From Candidatus Baldrarchaeota archaeon (lineage in GTDB: Archaea; Asgardarchaeota; Baldrarchaeia; Baldrarchaeales; DXJG01), in assembly GCA_019056805.1 (NCBI GenBank), contig DXJG01000004.1, positions 90,001 through 122,000 on the forward strand: DNA of 32,000 nt, in the 5' to 3' direction. Under the pieces are notes generated by a model. The model ran no database searches. It had not been told where the DNA came from and saw only the letters and a list, made by a program, of their open reading frames with translations. Shown piece by piece: positions 6,504 through 14,812 of this stretch. The position numbers and the translations under genes are program-made. Numbering within the stretch: the first letter of the stretch is position 1; each line of letters starts with the position of its first letter.

Positions 6504-6536
6504 TGTAGTGTTTAATTTGATAAGGGAGGATTGTTT

Positions 6537-7982
6537 TTGGAGCATGAAGATTTAGCTGAGTATGCAATTGAAGTAGGTGAAAAACTTGGCGTAGATTACA
6601 TCGAAGCTAGGCTTCAGAGGAATCTAAACAATGTTTTTCTATTAAAAAACGGTGTACCAGAAGCATCTGGGATAGAATCGTCCTTCGGTATCGGTGTAAG
6701 AGTTTTGGTCGATGGTGGCATGGGTTTTGTAAGCGTAAATCATTTCACAAAAGAACTTGTAAAGGAAAAAGTTGAAGAAGCAGTAAAAATAGCGAAAGCA
6801 TCTTCAAAAGTAAGGAAAAAGCCCATTGTTCTTTCAGAAGAGAAAATTGTGAAAGGTTCTTGGAAAACAATTTTTAGGCAAAATCCACTAGATGTACCAC
6901 CAGAAGAAAAATTGGAAATACTTTTAGATGTTGATAAAGCTATCCTCGACGTTGGGAACCGTTTAAAGGCAATGATCCCAGGGAGACTTCTACAGCTAAT
7001 GGACACCTATATCTACAAGTATTATGTGAATAGTGAAGGAACAAAGATTAGAAGCGAGATTTTAGGGGTTTCAGGATTTGCCGTAATAACAGTTGTAGAA
7101 CCATCTACAGGAGGATTTGAACAACAATACATGGATGTTGGAGCCACAAAAGGATACGAAGTATTAAAAGAATGGAATCTACCTAAAAAATGTGCAGATC
7201 TCGCTGAAATCTTGATTAAAATACTGAGAGAGGCAAAGAAACCTGTAACAGAGGAAGTAGATGTAGTTCTTGGACCTCAAATTGTAGGCATTGCTTGTCA
7301 CGAATCAGTGGGACATCCATATGAAGCAGATAGAATTTTGGGAAGAGAGGCAGCTCAAGCAGGAGAAAGTTTTGTTAAAAAAGAAATGCTAGGCCAAAAA
7401 GTCGGTAGTGAAGTAGTGAATGTTGTGGATGATCCAACAATTCCCAATTCCTATGGATACTATAGGTATGATGATGAAGGAGTACCAGCTAGGAAAAGAT
7501 ACCTCATCAAAAATGGAGTAATCAATGAATTTTTACACAACAGAGAAACTGCAGGCGAGTTTGGAATTCAAAGTAACGCTGCTGCAAGAGCTATGGGCTA
7601 TAATCGTGAACCTATTGTAAGAATGGCGAACACCTATCTTGAACCTGGAGATTATTCTTTTGAAGAACTTATTGAAGACATAAAAATAGGCGTTTACATG
7701 AAAACTTTTGGTGAATGGAACATAGATGACCGCAGATTTAACCAAAGATACATAGGTAAAGAGGCGTACCTAATTGAAAAGGGCGAAATAAAACATCTTG
7801 TGAAAAATCCAATTCTTGAAATAACAACCCCAGCATTCTGGAGCAGCGTTGACGCTGTGGGAAAAGCAGAGCTAATGGAGTTTGAAGCAGCTTTATGTGG
7901 TAAAGGAGACCCTGGTCAAGGAGCACCAGTATGGCATGGAGGGCCGCCTGCAAGATTAAGAAAAATCAAACTTGGAGGTTAA
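6537..7982 (+). CDS. tldD: TldD family metalloprotease
   Basis: HExxxH motif HESVGH(PYEADR); YDDEGV; PIVRMANTY; C-terminal CGKG. TTG 6537 lies 7 nt after GGAGG, whereas TTG 6531 abuts the SD. Confidence 0.92.
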   Translation: MEHEDLAEYAIEVGEKLGVDYIEARLQRNLNNVFLLKNGVPEASGIESSFGIGVRVLVDGGMGFVSVNHFTKELVKEKVEEAVKIAKASSKVRKKPIVLSEEKIVKGSWKTIFRQNPLDVPPEEKLEILLDVDKAILDVGNRLKAMIPGRLLQLMDTYIYKYYVNSEGTKIRSEILGVSGFAVITVVEPSTGGFEQQYMDVGATKGYEVLKEWNLPKKCADLAEILIKILREAKKPVTEEVDVVLGPQIVGIACHESVGHPYEADRILGREAAQAGESFVKKEMLGQKVGSEVVNVVDDPTIPNSYGYYRYDDEGVPARKRYLIKNGVINEFLHNRETAGEFGIQSNAAARAMGYNREPIVRMANTYLEPGDYSFEELIEDIKIGVYMKTFGEWNIDDRRFNQRYIGKEAYLIEKGEIKHLVKNPILEITTPAFWSSVDAVGKAELMEFEAALCGKGDPGQGAPVWHGGPPARLRKIKLGG

Positions 7983-7987
7983 AAACG

Positions 7988-9337
7988 ATGGAAAAAGTAG
8001 ATATTTATGATTTAGCCGATTTCATTGTTAAGGAAGGACTTAAACTAGGTGTAGACGAAGTTGCTGCCCTTATTCACGGAGTAGTAAAAAGACAAGTGAG
8101 ATTTTCTAACAACCAAGTAACAATAGCGAAAACTTGGGACGAAATCGTAGCTGAAGTATACATGGCTAAAAATAGAAAAATTGTTATGTGTACTGTCACT
8201 GATATTTCACAAAAATCGTTAAGGGAGACCTTAAACAAACTTGTTCACGTAGCAAATGTGGCTAAAGAATCAGAGAACTATGAAGAACTGCCAGAAGGGC
8301 CTTTCACGTACAAAAGTCTTTCTGAAACATATGATTCAAAAATTGTACAGCTTGGAGAACAAGTTGTAGGTTTTGCTGAAGAAGCGATAAAATCAGCTTT
8401 AGAAGCGGGAGGAAAACGGGTAGCTGGAACTCTTTACTCCGAATATGGCGAAACAGTGCTTGTTACATCGAGAAATGTAGAAGCTCGAGATAAAGGAACG
8501 AGAATTGAAATAACTGTAAGATCTTTTGCTGATGATGAAGGAGTAGCTCAAGGAATGGGACTATCAGTATCTCGTATTTTAAGTAAGTTCGACCCGTCGA
8601 AAGCAGGTAGAAAAGCTGGGGAAACATCAAAAATGGCCTTAAACCCGACCACAGGAAAACCTGGAACATACAATATTGTATTTGGTCCATATTGCTTTGC
8701 AAATCTGCTAGACTTTACCTCCATGGCTTTCTCAGCATTTTTTGTAGATAGCGGTTTAAGTCCCTTAGCAGATAAATTAAACAAACAAATAGCACCTGGA
8801 AAAGTTACGATAATAGATGACCCTCATTTACCTAACGGTTATAATTCTCGTTCTTTTGATGATGAGGGTGTACCTACAAGGCAAAATGAACTAATAAAGA
8901 ATGGCACTGTCAACACTTTTCTCCATAATGTAAAGACAGCTAAAAAATTCAATACGAAAACCACTGCAAACGCTGGTTGGATAGTACCTCATGCATGGAA
9001 TATTGTGTTTAAAACAGGAGACTATGGATTCGATGAATTACTAGAAGACGTAAGAAATGGCATTTTAATTGAAAACACTTGGTACACACGTTTTCAAAAC
9101 TATAGAACTGGCGACTTTTCAACAATACCCCGTGACGGAATATTCTTAGTAGAAAATGGCGAAGTGAAGAAAGCTATCAGAGGTATTAGAGTTTCAGACA
9201 ACATAGTAAAACTCTTCAACAATATTACCGGATTTACAAAGGAAACAGAACAAGTTCACTGGTGGGAAGTAGAAACTCCTGTAATAACTCCATATGTCGC
9301 AGTAAAAGACGTTAAAATCACAACAGCAACAAAATAA
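7988..9337 (+). CDS. pmbA: PmbA/TldE family protein
   Basis: RFSNNQV, FDDEGVPT, STIPRDG, IRGIRVSDN; no HExxxH. Starts 5 nt after the tldD stop at ATG 7988 (SD GGAGGT). The ORF-track extension to 7931 overlaps tldD. Confidence 0.9.
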   Translation: MEKVDIYDLADFIVKEGLKLGVDEVAALIHGVVKRQVRFSNNQVTIAKTWDEIVAEVYMAKNRKIVMCTVTDISQKSLRETLNKLVHVANVAKESENYEELPEGPFTYKSLSETYDSKIVQLGEQVVGFAEEAIKSALEAGGKRVAGTLYSEYGETVLVTSRNVEARDKGTRIEITVRSFADDEGVAQGMGLSVSRILSKFDPSKAGRKAGETSKMALNPTTGKPGTYNIVFGPYCFANLLDFTSMAFSAFFVDSGLSPLADKLNKQIAPGKVTIIDDPHLPNGYNSRSFDDEGVPTRQNELIKNGTVNTFLHNVKTAKKFNTKTTANAGWIVPHAWNIVFKTGDYGFDELLEDVRNGILIENTWYTRFQNYRTGDFSTIPRDGIFLVENGEVKKAIRGIRVSDNIVKLFNNITGFTKETEQVHWWEVETPVITPYVAVKDVKITTATK

Positions 9338-9379: not shown

Positions 9380-9808
9380 TTATGTTTCTGGTTTCTTTAC
9401 TAGTTGTTTACTGAACGCTATTTGTATCACGTGCTTAAATATTGTTAAGAATATGGAGGCTACTACTAGATCTTTAATAAGGTTATAAGAAACACTGATG
9501 TTAATGTTTAAAGCTGGTAATCGAATAAGAGTAATCATTTCTAGAAATTTGAAGAAATACCAAAGAACTACAACATTTCGAAGTATCCCAGAAACACCGC
9601 TAATACCTGGTTTAGTGTCTTCAAAAGTTTTTTCTAAACCTGCCAATACAGCTAAGACAAACCCTATAGCCATGATCATCTCTTTATCGAAAAGTAGAAG
9701 ATAAATGCCGTAATGGCGAGCAACGTCATTTCCCAATGTTGGAAGATATCCCCATGTAATGAATATATAAATGAACTTTATAATCCCACTTTTAACTCCC
9801 AAAATCAC
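9380..9808 (-). CDS. Hypothetical multi-pass membrane protein (about 4 TM)
   Basis: 142 aa with several hydrophobic stretches. GTG start with AGGAG upstream, 6 nt after the upstream gene's stop. Confidence 0.65.
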   Translation of the reverse strand: MILGVKSGIIKFIYIFITWGYLPTLGNDVARHYGIYLLLFDKEMIMAIGFVLAVLAGLEKTFEDTKPGISGVSGILRNVVVLWYFFKFLEMITLIRLPALNINISVSYNLIKDLVVASIFLTIFKHVIQIAFSKQLVKKPET

Positions 9809-9814
9809 CCACTC

Positions 9815-10279
9815 CTAAAAGGTTTCAGTATAGTTGAGGGTAAAAGACACAAAGTTCATATCCATTAAGGACATGATTCCTTCAACTTCGATAACTATTG
9901 TCCACTCAGTAGTGCTATTAAAAATCGCTCGGCTTATTACAAAATCGAACGTCAAAGTTTTTTGTTCACCAGGATTTATGGTAAAAGTTTCTTTGTCCAA
10001 AGCTACAGGACTATTATTGCCTACAGCATCTGAATATATGTAAACTATCACGTTCATGTTTGAAAACGAAAATAAAATTCCTCTGTGCTCCAAACCTATT
10101 GTTGCCTCGACATCCACAGTTGTTGGACCTACAGTAAATACTACAGAGCCTGCAGCATCTTTAAGCCCTATATTAAGGCTTGCAGCATCGTAAGTCATTA
10201 TAGTTGAGAGAACAGAAACCCCTATACCAAACAAAATCACGATTACCTTAATTATATTGAATATCGTTCTTGCAGCCAA
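9815..10279 (-). CDS. Membrane-anchored protein: N-terminal TM helix plus beta-rich (LEA_2/WHy-like) domain
   Basis: IIKVIVILFGIGVSVLSTIM is a TM/signal anchor. FSFSNMNVIVYIY...TFTINPGEQKTLTFDFVI resembles LEA_2 beta-sandwiches. Three N-x-S/T sequons (NNS, NST, NYT). SD GGAGGT precedes the TTG. Confidence 0.6.
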   Translation of the reverse strand: MAARTIFNIIKVIVILFGIGVSVLSTIMTYDAASLNIGLKDAAGSVVFTVGPTTVDVEATIGLEHRGILFSFSNMNVIVYIYSDAVGNNSPVALDKETFTINPGEQKTLTFDFVISRAIFNSTTEWTIVIEVEGIMSLMDMNFVSFTLNYTETF

Positions 10280-10417
10280 TAGTCCTTAACCTCCAAGGTT
10301 CGTTTAGTAAATAATAAGAGTAGTAAGAAGCGAATATTTAAATTTTAAGTTCGAATTTATAGAAATAATAGCAAAATATAAAGTTAAAAATTGTAATTTA
10401 AGATGCATATTAGCACT

Positions 10418-10593
10418 TTATTTTGTGTTTTGAAGAAGTTCTTGAGCTAATACTTTAAATGCTACATTTACATTTTCGCCAGTCTTTGCAGAAGTATCTA
10501 TAGGAAGATCGCAACGCATCTAATTCAGAAATATGTCATTTAGCTCTTATCGAACTATTGTGGTCATGGTTTGTTGGTTAGTTTATTTCCTAC
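10418..10593 (-). pseudogene. Remnant of a Rab/Ras-like small GTPase (G4 and G5 motifs only)
   Basis: 10519-10418 translates MRCDLPIDTSAKTGENVNVAFKVLAQELLQNTK*, i.e. G5 (SAK-TGENV--AF) plus helix 5. VGNK (G4-like) at 10593-10582 is in another frame, 95 nt upstream of the Ser codon, with stops in between. Confidence 0.7.
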
Positions 10594-10668
10594 ATTTTTA
10601 AGCGAAGCAAATAGTATAACGGTAAAAAAATGCAAAAATGCTTTGTGAATACTAAAAGAGTCAAAGAG

Positions 10669-11451
10669 TTACGTTAAAAATTTTCTGGGGTTTCTTAGCA
10701 GCCAGGCTTCGCCTTTATCAGGCTTGTACGACCATTCTCCCTTTTTTATAAGTTTAATTCTCTTTTTTATTCTTTCTTTAATGTCATTATGATACTTTAT
10801 TGTTGAAGCAAATAGTACGAGCGCTCTAGATATAATATAGCTCTTAGCTAGATCTTCATCGTAAATATTTATTTCAACTTTTCCACCGATATTAAGCTTC
10901 TTACTATCAATAAATGCAACTTTTTTCTTAGTTGGACCGTAGTAGACGTCCCAATCGCTACCAATTGTTAGTCTATTTTCATCAATTTTAAACACGCTCA
11001 TTGGTTCTTCTTCTTTCTCCGATAAATAGGTGAAAACATAAACTTCGCCAAAACCATGTCTTCTATGAACTTTTTCGATCCAAAGGACATAATCATAGTT
11101 TGGTATTGTTGCTACAAATACAGGTATTACATCGTTTGAGCCTATACTATTCTTAAGCTCTTCAACAACGATTTCTTCAATGCTTCCAAGCCATCCACCT
11201 TCGTCTGTAAAAAGCCTCACAACAAGTCTTCCATTGAGTTCGTCGCCATCTTCACCTTTCCATGACTTTTCACGTATAGCTACAAAACCTTTACCTTTAT
11301 CATCTTCTATATACTTTCCAAAAATATCCATGTCCATTGTGAAATGTCTACTTTTCGACCTATACTGTTCTTTCTGTCTAATGCCTATTTCCTCGCCATG
11401 TAAACCTGTTTTCCAAAAGTCAATGACAAATTTCTTAATTGGTTTAACCAT
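10669..11451 (-). CDS. Hypothetical protein, probable Tubby/LURP-one/scramblase-like beta-barrel
   Basis: 260 aa, SD GGAGGT, strand-rich. The C-terminal half (SDWDVYYGPTKKKVAFIDSKKLNIGGKVEINIYDEDLAKSYIISRALVLFASTI) follows the LURP-one pattern ending in a hydrophobic core helix. The CDS is secure; the fold is inferred. Confidence 0.55.
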   Translation of the reverse strand: MVKPIKKFVIDFWKTGLHGEEIGIRQKEQYRSKSRHFTMDMDIFGKYIEDDKGKGFVAIREKSWKGEDGDELNGRLVVRLFTDEGGWLGSIEEIVVEELKNSIGSNDVIPVFVATIPNYDYVLWIEKVHRRHGFGEVYVFTYLSEKEEEPMSVFKIDENRLTIGSDWDVYYGPTKKKVAFIDSKKLNIGGKVEINIYDEDLAKSYIISRALVLFASTIKYHNDIKERIKKRIKLIKKGEWSYKPDKGEAWLLRNPRKFLT

Positions 11452-11533
11452 GAAGGTATACCTCCCTTAAAATAAGAATATCTTCCCCTTATTAATGATA
11501 CTAACAATATCCAAATCAAAAATAATATGTATT

Positions 11534-12118
11534 TTATTCTACATAGGGTAAGTTTTTCAAAGCTTCTTTTAAATCGTCAACAGCTTGTTCAATAGGTTGA
11601 ACCATAGAAGATAGCATTGCTAGAGTTGATGCATCATAGCCTCCCATTGTTGATAATATGTTAACTTCGTTCTTTAATTTCTCTAAGCTTTTAAGGACAG
11701 CTCCAAATCTAAGTAATATGATTTTCGATAAAGCTTGTCTATTTGCGAGTCTAACTTTGCCTTGGAGAATAACATTCCTCACATCTAGCTTTTTGATAGC
11801 GTTTTGCTCAAGTAGGGGCAGCGAGTTATTAATTAATTCAGTTAAGGCATAACTTAGTTCCAAGTCGTCACTATCTGTTGAAGCAATAAGCATGAAAATG
11901 TAATTATTAATAACTTCAAAAAACATTTTAAAAGATGTAGTTTGGATACGTTGAATTTTTTCTGACATATCAGGAGACAACATAGATGAGATTTTTGCTA
12001 TTGCTGCTGCAAATTCAGATGTATATTCTTCATCGGGTTGATAATTGCTATTAGGATTCTTATAGTGATATACCATTGATCGAGTCTTCATATCTACAAT
12101 ATAATACTCTAATATCAT
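11534..12118 (-). CDS. Longin-like (profilin-fold) domain protein with C-terminal coiled-coil hairpin
   Basis: MILEYYIVDMKTRSMVYHY (b1-b2), FAAAIAKISSML (a1), IQRIQTTSFKMFFEVINNYIFMLIAS (b3-b5), LELSYALTELIN (a2) gives the longin bb-a-bbb-a order. C-terminal heptads. Start set at ATG 12118 after GGTGG. Confidence 0.65.
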   Translation of the reverse strand: MILEYYIVDMKTRSMVYHYKNPNSNYQPDEEYTSEFAAAIAKISSMLSPDMSEKIQRIQTTSFKMFFEVINNYIFMLIASTDSDDLELSYALTELINNSLPLLEQNAIKKLDVRNVILQGKVRLANRQALSKIILLRFGAVLKSLEKLKNEVNILSTMGGYDASTLAMLSSMVQPIEQAVDDLKEALKNLPYVE

Positions 12119-12208
12119 ATCTAACCACCAACTTAACACAAATATTTTGCTATGATCACTTATTATAGGTTACCTTTGTTTAAGGGAAATTCGGATGTGT
12201 ATGTTTCA

Positions 12209-12769
12209 TTAGATGCTACTAGCTATTTTTCTTGATAAAGATTTTTCATCTTCCAATACAAGCTTTCTTTCTAATATTAATTCAACTATTCTTTCAAAGG
12301 GTTTCTCTACATTCACCATATTTAAAGCTGAAGTTTCAATATAATCGTCGATACGTTGCTCCATCAAAAATTTTCTAATATCTTCCCTTGAAACACTTTT
12401 CGGTAAATCCGCTTTTGTACCTATAAGCACAATTGGTATATCAGGTACATTATGCATTCTAACGAGTTCAAGCCAGTTTTCTATCGCCAAAAAAGTATCA
12501 TAAGAGGACAAGTCAAAAGCTAATAACACGCCATCTGCTCCTTTTACAGCGTAAGGATTTTCCCGGTGCATTTGCAAAAAGTTTCTACATCCTCCGAAAT
12601 CCCATATAACAAGTTTACAAGCAGCATCATTCATTTTCATAAAGTATGTAGTGAAATCTAACCCAACTGTAATATTACAGTTCATAAACTGTTTATATTT
12701 AAATGCCCTTAAAAGCGTTGTTTTACCAATTCCAGTCTCACCAACTAACAGAACTTTGAACAATTCCAT
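12209..12769 (-). CDS. Ras-superfamily small GTPase (Rab-like, divergent)
   Basis: G1 GETGIGKT, G2 TVGLDF, G3 WDFGG, G4 GTKAD, G5 ETSAL. No C-terminal Cys. SD GGTGA 6 nt before the ATG. Confidence 0.92.
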   Translation of the reverse strand: MELFKVLLVGETGIGKTTLLRAFKYKQFMNCNITVGLDFTTYFMKMNDAACKLVIWDFGGCRNFLQMHRENPYAVKGADGVLLAFDLSSYDTFLAIENWLELVRMHNVPDIPIVLIGTKADLPKSVSREDIRKFLMEQRIDDYIETSALNMVNVEKPFERIVELILERKLVLEDEKSLSRKIASSI

Positions 12770-14591: not shown

Positions 14592-14812
14592 AGCTTTCCA
14601 CCTCAGAAAATAATTAATATTTTTAACAATTTTATCAATACTTAGGTTAAAGTATTAGTGGAAAATTTCGTATAAACTTTTAGGAGTAATTCTTCGCTTC
14701 CTTATGTTTTCATTGAAATTTGATATGTAATATATAAGCATAATTATATGTGGTTTCGATAGGTTCTTGAAGGGATTTAAGTAAATTGTCACCTAAGTGT
14801 CTTGGAGGACAA

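Follow-up and report, generated by a model that had tools for sequence, protein, structure and literature searches.

The locus described here lies in a stretch of 32,000 nucleotides (nt) from Candidatus Baldrarchaeota archaeon (positions 90,001 to 122,000 of contig DXJG01000004.1, assembly GCA_019056805.1; hereafter the window), whose 1.9-Mb genome is 91% complete. Between window positions 9380 and 12769 the minus strand holds six consecutive elements, at the places given in a preliminary description of this DNA: the genes of a Rab-like small GTPase (GTPase1; 12209..12769, 186 amino acids, aa), of a longin-domain protein (11534..12118, 194 aa) and of a predicted barrel protein, P3 (10669..11451, 260 aa), the remnant of a second GTPase (GTPase2; 10418..10507), and the genes of two putative membrane proteins, P4 (9815..10279, 154 aa) and P5 (9380..9808, 142 aa). 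The spacers between the first three genes, 90 nt (GTPase1-longin) and 82 nt (longin-P3), match the 80-90 nt first noted, and P4 and P5 are 6 nt apart. The common orientation of the cluster is nothing special, because the upstream radical-SAM and flavin-reductase genes share the strand. No paralogues of the longin protein, P3, P4 or P5 were found in the same genome. The small GTPases and longin/roadblock proteins of Asgard archaea are widely seen as foreshadowing the membrane traffic of eukaryotes, but their partners are rarely readable from gene order. We examined whether the six elements belong to one conserved system, as had been proposed, or are units with separate histories.

GTPase1 matches Pfam Ras (E 2.5e-31) and its closest solved relatives are all Rabs, namely Rab25, Rab11 and Rab35 (E about 1e-27 to 1e-24). 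It carries the motifs G1 (GETGIGKT), G2 (T34), G3 (WDFGG), G4 (TKAD) and G5 (SAL); in the alignment of its orthogroup G1, G2 and G3 are invariant, and G4, either TKAD or MKAD, is invariant only at G, K and D. The Ras-fold G domain, the presence of G1-G5 and the lack of a prenylation motif are common to Asgard Rab-like small GTPases, whereas the eukaryotic Rab family differs from GTPase1 in having a C-terminal cysteine prenylation motif, of which there is none in the C-terminus of GTPase1 (...KIASSI). From its Asgard counterparts GTPase1 is distinguished by the TKAD or MKAD form of G4, by an insert that makes switch II three residues longer throughout the orthogroup, and by the absence of the catalytic glutamine after DxxG. 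This residue is Cys61 in GTPase1 and Cys or Tyr in 10 of 10 aligned orthologues, more distant relatives having Gln or Glu. The orthogroup is also fast-evolving and restricted in range, with orthologues (59-88% identity) found only in Baldrarchaeia and the next matches at no more than 41%. As a Rab-like protein without the glutamine, GTPase1 should need a partner for hydrolysis or exchange. It is one of 12 Ras-family matches in its own genome.

The true start of the adjacent gene is the ATG at 12118, preceded by an invariant GGTGG ribosome-binding site and giving a protein of 194 aa, as in all homologues. Its AlphaFold2 model (predicted local distance difference test, pLDDT, 86.7) consists of a beta-beta-alpha-beta-beta-beta-alpha core (residues 1-104, with strands 2-9, 14-20, 57-59, 63-70 and 73-80 and helices 30-47 and 85-104) without an N-terminal helix, followed by a C-terminal helical hairpin (127-188). 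Foldseek searches of the PDB with this model returned AP2 sigma, zeta-COP, Bet5/Trs23, Mon1-Ccz1, MglB and LAMTOR (E 2e-5 to 1e-3), and the Swiss-Prot section of AlphaFold DB returned the N-terminal region of delta-COP, over the full length, together with sigma adaptins and Bet5. The model thus identifies the protein as one of longin fold, as the preliminary description had supposed, although no Pfam longin family scored above its cut-off (best Fuz_longin_1, E 0.045, 14.4 bits versus 26.1). A longin R-SNARE of the Ykt6, Sec22 or VAMP7 kind was considered and rejected: the protein has no transmembrane segment that could serve as an anchor (maximum KD19 1.1), and its C-terminal part is a two-helix hairpin.

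Longin/roadblock dimers are the usual platforms of small GTPases, as MglB is for MglA and Mon1-Ccz1 and TRAPP are for Rabs. The protein shares its core fold, by Foldseek, with MglB of the MglB-MglA pair, with Mon1-Ccz1 (Mon1-Ccz1-Ypt7), with Bet5/Trs23 of TRAPP and with the sigma and zeta subunits of AP and COPI complexes, and here too the longin gene adjoins that of a Ras-superfamily GTPase. It departs from these platforms in lacking a significant Pfam longin match and in its additional helical hairpin, which resembles only the N-terminal region of delta-COP; the adjacency to a GTPase is limited to one genus. Over its full length the protein has a small sequence family, with 8 representative clusters among 1.8 billion proteins. 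Residues 1-104 also find numerous Asgard proteins about 300 aa long, and a GTPase domain directly followed the longin match at four of the four such loci examined. Other Asgard genomes thus encode fusions of a homologous longin domain with an Arf-like GTPase. The one fusion scanned with Pfam matched Arf (E 1.3e-23) and, at its N-terminus, Fuz_longin_1 (E 1.3e-4). Fusions of this type are already described in the Asgard literature (PMC10933270; 10.1101/2020.10.19.343400). A GTPase gene beside that of a roadblock/longin-superfamily protein is also found in the Asgard operon of LAMTOR1-like roadblock, Rab-like GTPase and DENN proteins (Liu et al., 10.1101/2020.10.19.343400), but here the partner has longin rather than roadblock topology, no DENN-domain gene is present and, unlike that conserved operon, the neighbourhood is not kept across Asgard classes.

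P3 was modelled by AlphaFold2 with a pLDDT of 85.3 and a predicted template modelling score of 0.88, as 12 strands and a long C-terminal core helix (205-236). VIA-align placed two eukaryotic structures at the top, 2q4m_A (Z 9.8, 145 residues aligned), the LURP-one-related Arabidopsis protein At5g01750, and 1i7e_A (Z 9.6, 157 residues), mouse Tubby with PIP2 bound; the third row, a 12-stranded outer-membrane barrel, reached Z 6.5. Among AlphaFold DB clusters, four clusters of the protein's own family came first and were followed by phospholipid scramblases, LURP-one and Tubby C-terminal domains (E 1e-5 to 1e-3). Foldseek against the PDB gave no row at E of 0.001 or less, with Tubby and TULP1 appearing weakly (TM about 0.4), and the Atlas holds no structure entry for P3 or P0007. 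Taken together, the model and the structure searches confirmed the Tubby/LURP-one/scramblase fold first suggested for P3, predicted as a 12-stranded closed barrel around the C-terminal helix.

At the sequence level this relationship is faint. Neither P3 nor 20 members of its family had a match in Pfam, including LOR (LURP-one-related, PF04525), Scramblase (PF03803) and Tub, and a P3 profile searched against PDB sequences returned rows of chance level only. Profile comparison by hhalign of P3 with 30 Asgard LOR proteins gave a probability of 44-46% (P 2e-4), with reversed, shuffled and unrelated controls well below; no match was obtained between the P3 profile and the single LOR protein of its own genome. 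When 2,728 sequences (2,698 open reading frames, ORFs, of that genome and the 30 LOR proteins) were searched with a P3 hidden Markov model, eight LOR proteins ranked directly after P3 and above every unrelated ORF (best E 2.9e-5). P3 therefore shares with the Tubby_C/LOR (DUF567)/scramblase superfamily the 12-stranded barrel, the central C-terminal helix and a profile similarity to Asgard LOR, weak but specific, and differs from it in the lack of any Pfam match and of the strong internal hairpin repeats of LOR. Two motifs, conserved in an alignment of 20 relatives, are peculiar to the P3 family: an N-terminal one (residues 9-45) with highly conserved H18, G23, Q26, K33, R35 and F37, of which H18, Q26, K33 and R35 are invariant, and a C-terminal LLRNPR. 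Hydropathy revealed no transmembrane segment and, unlike scramblases, P3 has neither a transmembrane nor a palmitoylation segment.

The P3 family was detected in 290 of 400 Asgard genomes, representing 73 of 85 genera and mostly in single copy. In a second archaeal phylum, 201 genomes were searched and a single one had it, the metagenome-assembled genome (MAG) labelled Thermofilaceae that served as the query and defined the phylum (L123/L132; G400:C21:6376-7128), whose copy is 63% identical to the Baldrarchaeia one and which has few Ras-family genes, suggesting a mis-binned contig or a transfer. Our search of the literature on Asgard Tubby, scramblase or LURP proteins found no description of a P3-like family. 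The P3 family is a new, widespread and unannotated Asgard variant of the Tubby/LOR/scramblase superfamily. Some members carry extra parts, namely a helix-hairpin-helix domain or a C2H2-like zinc finger with Lys/Ser-rich N-terminal tails (seen in AlphaFold DB cluster A0A842TFZ3 and P0021), and these parts of nucleic-acid type hint at contact of the family with DNA or RNA, like that of Tubby. The one LOR protein of the genome that contains the window (G000:C9:532340-533014) has a zinc-ribbon-like N-terminal CxxC...CxxC and is encoded elsewhere, without linkage to this stretch. Several Asgard genera have LOR genes in tandem pairs. In genus g28 (L106:197-1959; L095 and L099 are spaced similarly) a 132-aa gene without Pfam match lies between two LOR genes; it was considered as a possible longin and set aside, having no similarity to the longin profile.

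The spacer upstream of P3 contains a T5 run, followed by a conserved TTAATAAGGGG element and a GGAGGT ribosome-binding site, whereas the GTPase1-longin spacer contains no T5 run and is only 56 nt long in L011. These features suggest that P3 is transcribed separately from the longin gene. P3 is a soluble protein of a near-universal, mostly single-copy Asgard family, probably with its own promoter and a function independent of its neighbours. Most likely it works alone as a ligand- or membrane-binding barrel, with the barrel face binding the head-group of a membrane lipid or some other small molecule.

Between P3 and P4 the window has lost genes that its relatives retain. The order in sister genomes is GTPase1, longin protein, P3, a 470-aa GvpD/KaiC-like ATPase (Pfam GvpD_P-loop E 1.7e-21, KaiC 6.6e-12), a 188-aa Rab-like GTPase2, P4 and P5; it was seen in L011, L012, L130 and L131 and, as far as the contigs reach, in G006, G007 and G008, and GTPase2 is intact in all seven. 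The ATPase and GTPase2 genes are separated by merely 9-14 nt in sister genomes (L011:8035-10023, L130:8403-10402, L131:8464-10452 and L088) and look like a tightly coupled pair, a combination of GvpD/KaiC-like ATPase and Rab-like GTPase for which we found no description in the literature. In L013 both genes are broken by frameshifts and stops. About 2.1-2.3 kb of the DNA present in sister genomes, comprising the ATPase gene and most of GTPase2, is missing from the window, where blastn maps against L011, L012 and L013 place the deletion scar in the spacer at 10508..10668. In the same study a second sequencing run yielded a contig that bridges the deletion junction with 0 differences.

What remains of GTPase2 are its last 29 codons, encoding the G5 motif SAK and helix 5, and the stop codon (10418..10507). 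The remnant sits between the P3 and P4 orthologues. It shares 66% identity with the intact GTPase2 of L011 (188 aa; residues 156-184) and 63%, over 27 residues, with a Rab-like paralogue of its own genome. The decayed second GTPase of the preliminary description is therefore real but smaller than claimed, since an out-of-frame VGNK upstream, which had been counted as part of it, was rejected: the 154-nt stretch from the P3 stop to the relic aligned with the ATPase/GTPase2 DNA of relatives no better than shuffled sequences did (Smith-Waterman), and with no detectable homology in this leftover spacer the VGNK is best regarded as chance. The ancestral locus thus also held a tightly coupled GvpD/KaiC-like ATPase and second Rab-like GTPase, which decayed in one relative and were deleted here down to 29 codons.

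P4 and P5 have no Pfam family. P4 appears to be a single-pass membrane protein: a hydrophobic helix at its N-terminus is followed by a C-terminal part rich in strands, and the sequence has three N-x-S/T sequons. P5, first described as a 4-TM protein, has four hydrophobic segments by hydropathy. Of 400 Asgard genomes, 12 have P4, and in both distant relatives examined, G001 and G298, the gene immediately precedes that of P5, which is 42% and 33% identical, respectively; no match to a GTPase was found in the 8-9 kb covered around either pair. P4 and P5 would thus form a separate membrane unit of two genes.

The order is kept in close Baldrarchaeia relatives and is absent in other families, being confined to a single genus. 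The relatives that keep it also keep SurE, flavin reductase, radical SAM and TldD/PmbA equally collinear, so that its conservation is a sign of close kinship. In more distant Asgard lineages the components part company. Full-length longin orthologues from families f3, f12, f28 and f29 had no GTPase in their flanks (at most 1.5 kb per side), nor had the longin orthologue of an Asgardarchaeia MAG. Two P3 orthologues, 63% and 49% identical, lie among different neighbours; 26 of the 28 P3 loci outside the genus lack a nearby GTPase, and no family flanking P3 recurs beyond clade level. Likewise, none of 30 LOR loci had a GTPase or this longin domain nearby. The genes do not, then, behave as parts of one conserved system, and the region is probably best explained as a lineage-specific neighbourhood of evolutionarily independent units, of which the P4-P5 pair is one. 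The locus shows that eukaryote-like genes can follow one another suggestively without making up a system, which sets a limit on arguments from synteny.

Several observations weigh against a neighbourhood of independent units. At the two remaining P3 loci outside the genus, both in another genus, a Rab-like GTPase lies about 0.8 kb downstream. The seven-gene order spans relatives whose GTPase1 proteins are merely 59-65% identical, so some selection on the arrangement is conceivable. Compared with GTPase1, the longin protein is older and under much stronger constraint, and it has orthologues in lineages without a detected GTPase1 orthologue, so its main partner may be something else. The ratios of nonsynonymous to synonymous substitution (dN/dS), 0.15-0.47 for GTPase1 (the highest of the region), 0.03-0.05 for the longin protein, 0.05-0.19 for P3 and 0.07 for the radical-SAM flank, are themselves rough, dS being saturated in most comparisons.

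One alternative is the single membrane-trafficking module first proposed, in which GTPase1 would be the switch, the longin protein its guanine nucleotide exchange factor or adaptor, P3 a Tubby-like lipid-binding effector and the others membrane partners, together with the ATPase and GTPase2 in relatives. Such a module would account for the recovery of both eukaryote-like folds, for the short spacers, for an order shared by at least seven genomes or contigs of relatives and for the GTPase neighbour of P3 in another genus, but it meets housekeeping flanks that are just as collinear in the same relatives, components that each have unrelated neighbours outside the genus, a lineage that tolerates losing two of the seven genes, and a P3 that looks separately transcribed; we consider it improbable. 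Improbable too is a variant for Baldrarchaeia, in which the GTPase1-longin pair recruits P3 to membranes as a lipid-binding effector, with the GvpD-like ATPase and GTPase2 assisting in relatives. Were it true, P3 would be an archaeal forerunner of the eukaryotic Tubby and scramblase proteins that itself works under GTPase control. The P3 family is the more useful by-product of this analysis, since it gives studies of lipid binding and localisation a defined target.

Within the neighbourhood of independent units, GTPase1 and the longin protein are the sole pair with a plausible switch-regulator relation. The two genes are adjacent in every genome that has GTPase1, and the same class of longin domain is fused to GTPases elsewhere. 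The longin protein could act as a platform that loads or unloads nucleotide, or that gives GTPase-activating activity, for a GTPase1 with little intrinsic hydrolysis. A complex prediction with two longin copies and GTPase1 scored 0.25, the mark being 0.32, a value that weighs neither way on binding. That they form a functional pair is the best-supported functional link of the locus, and we put it forward tentatively, as a possibility somewhat short of even. The adjacency might instead be a coincidence, GTPase1 being a decaying lineage-specific paralogue, functionally unrelated to the longin protein and heading for loss like GTPase2. This would agree with the longin orthologues of four other families that have no GTPase neighbour, with the loss of the catalytic glutamine, with a dN/dS of 0.47 against the nearest relative and with the finding that Asgard GTPase genes generally lie outside operons with roadblock or longin genes (PMC10933270; 10.1101/2020.10.19.343400). 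It is nevertheless rather unlikely, since G1, G2, G4 and G5 of GTPase1 are intact, dN/dS is below 1 in every comparison, and the constant adjacency and the fusions are left unexplained. The locus offers one testable pair, a GTPase without its glutamine beside a well-conserved longin protein.

Outside the cluster, TldD (483 aa) and PmbA (468 aa) are encoded on the plus strand at window positions 6531-9337, with a 52-nt overlap and convergent with the cluster, and their genes are reduced to fragments in L013. On the other side, window positions 14592-14785 lack three or four genes that relatives have between SurE and flavin reductase (cf. L011:1965-3526), among them two HEPN-like genes that form a pair and one resembling a prenyltransferase/cyclase. 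This absence and the deletion of the ATPase and GTPase2 jointly suggest gene loss in the 1.9-Mb genome.

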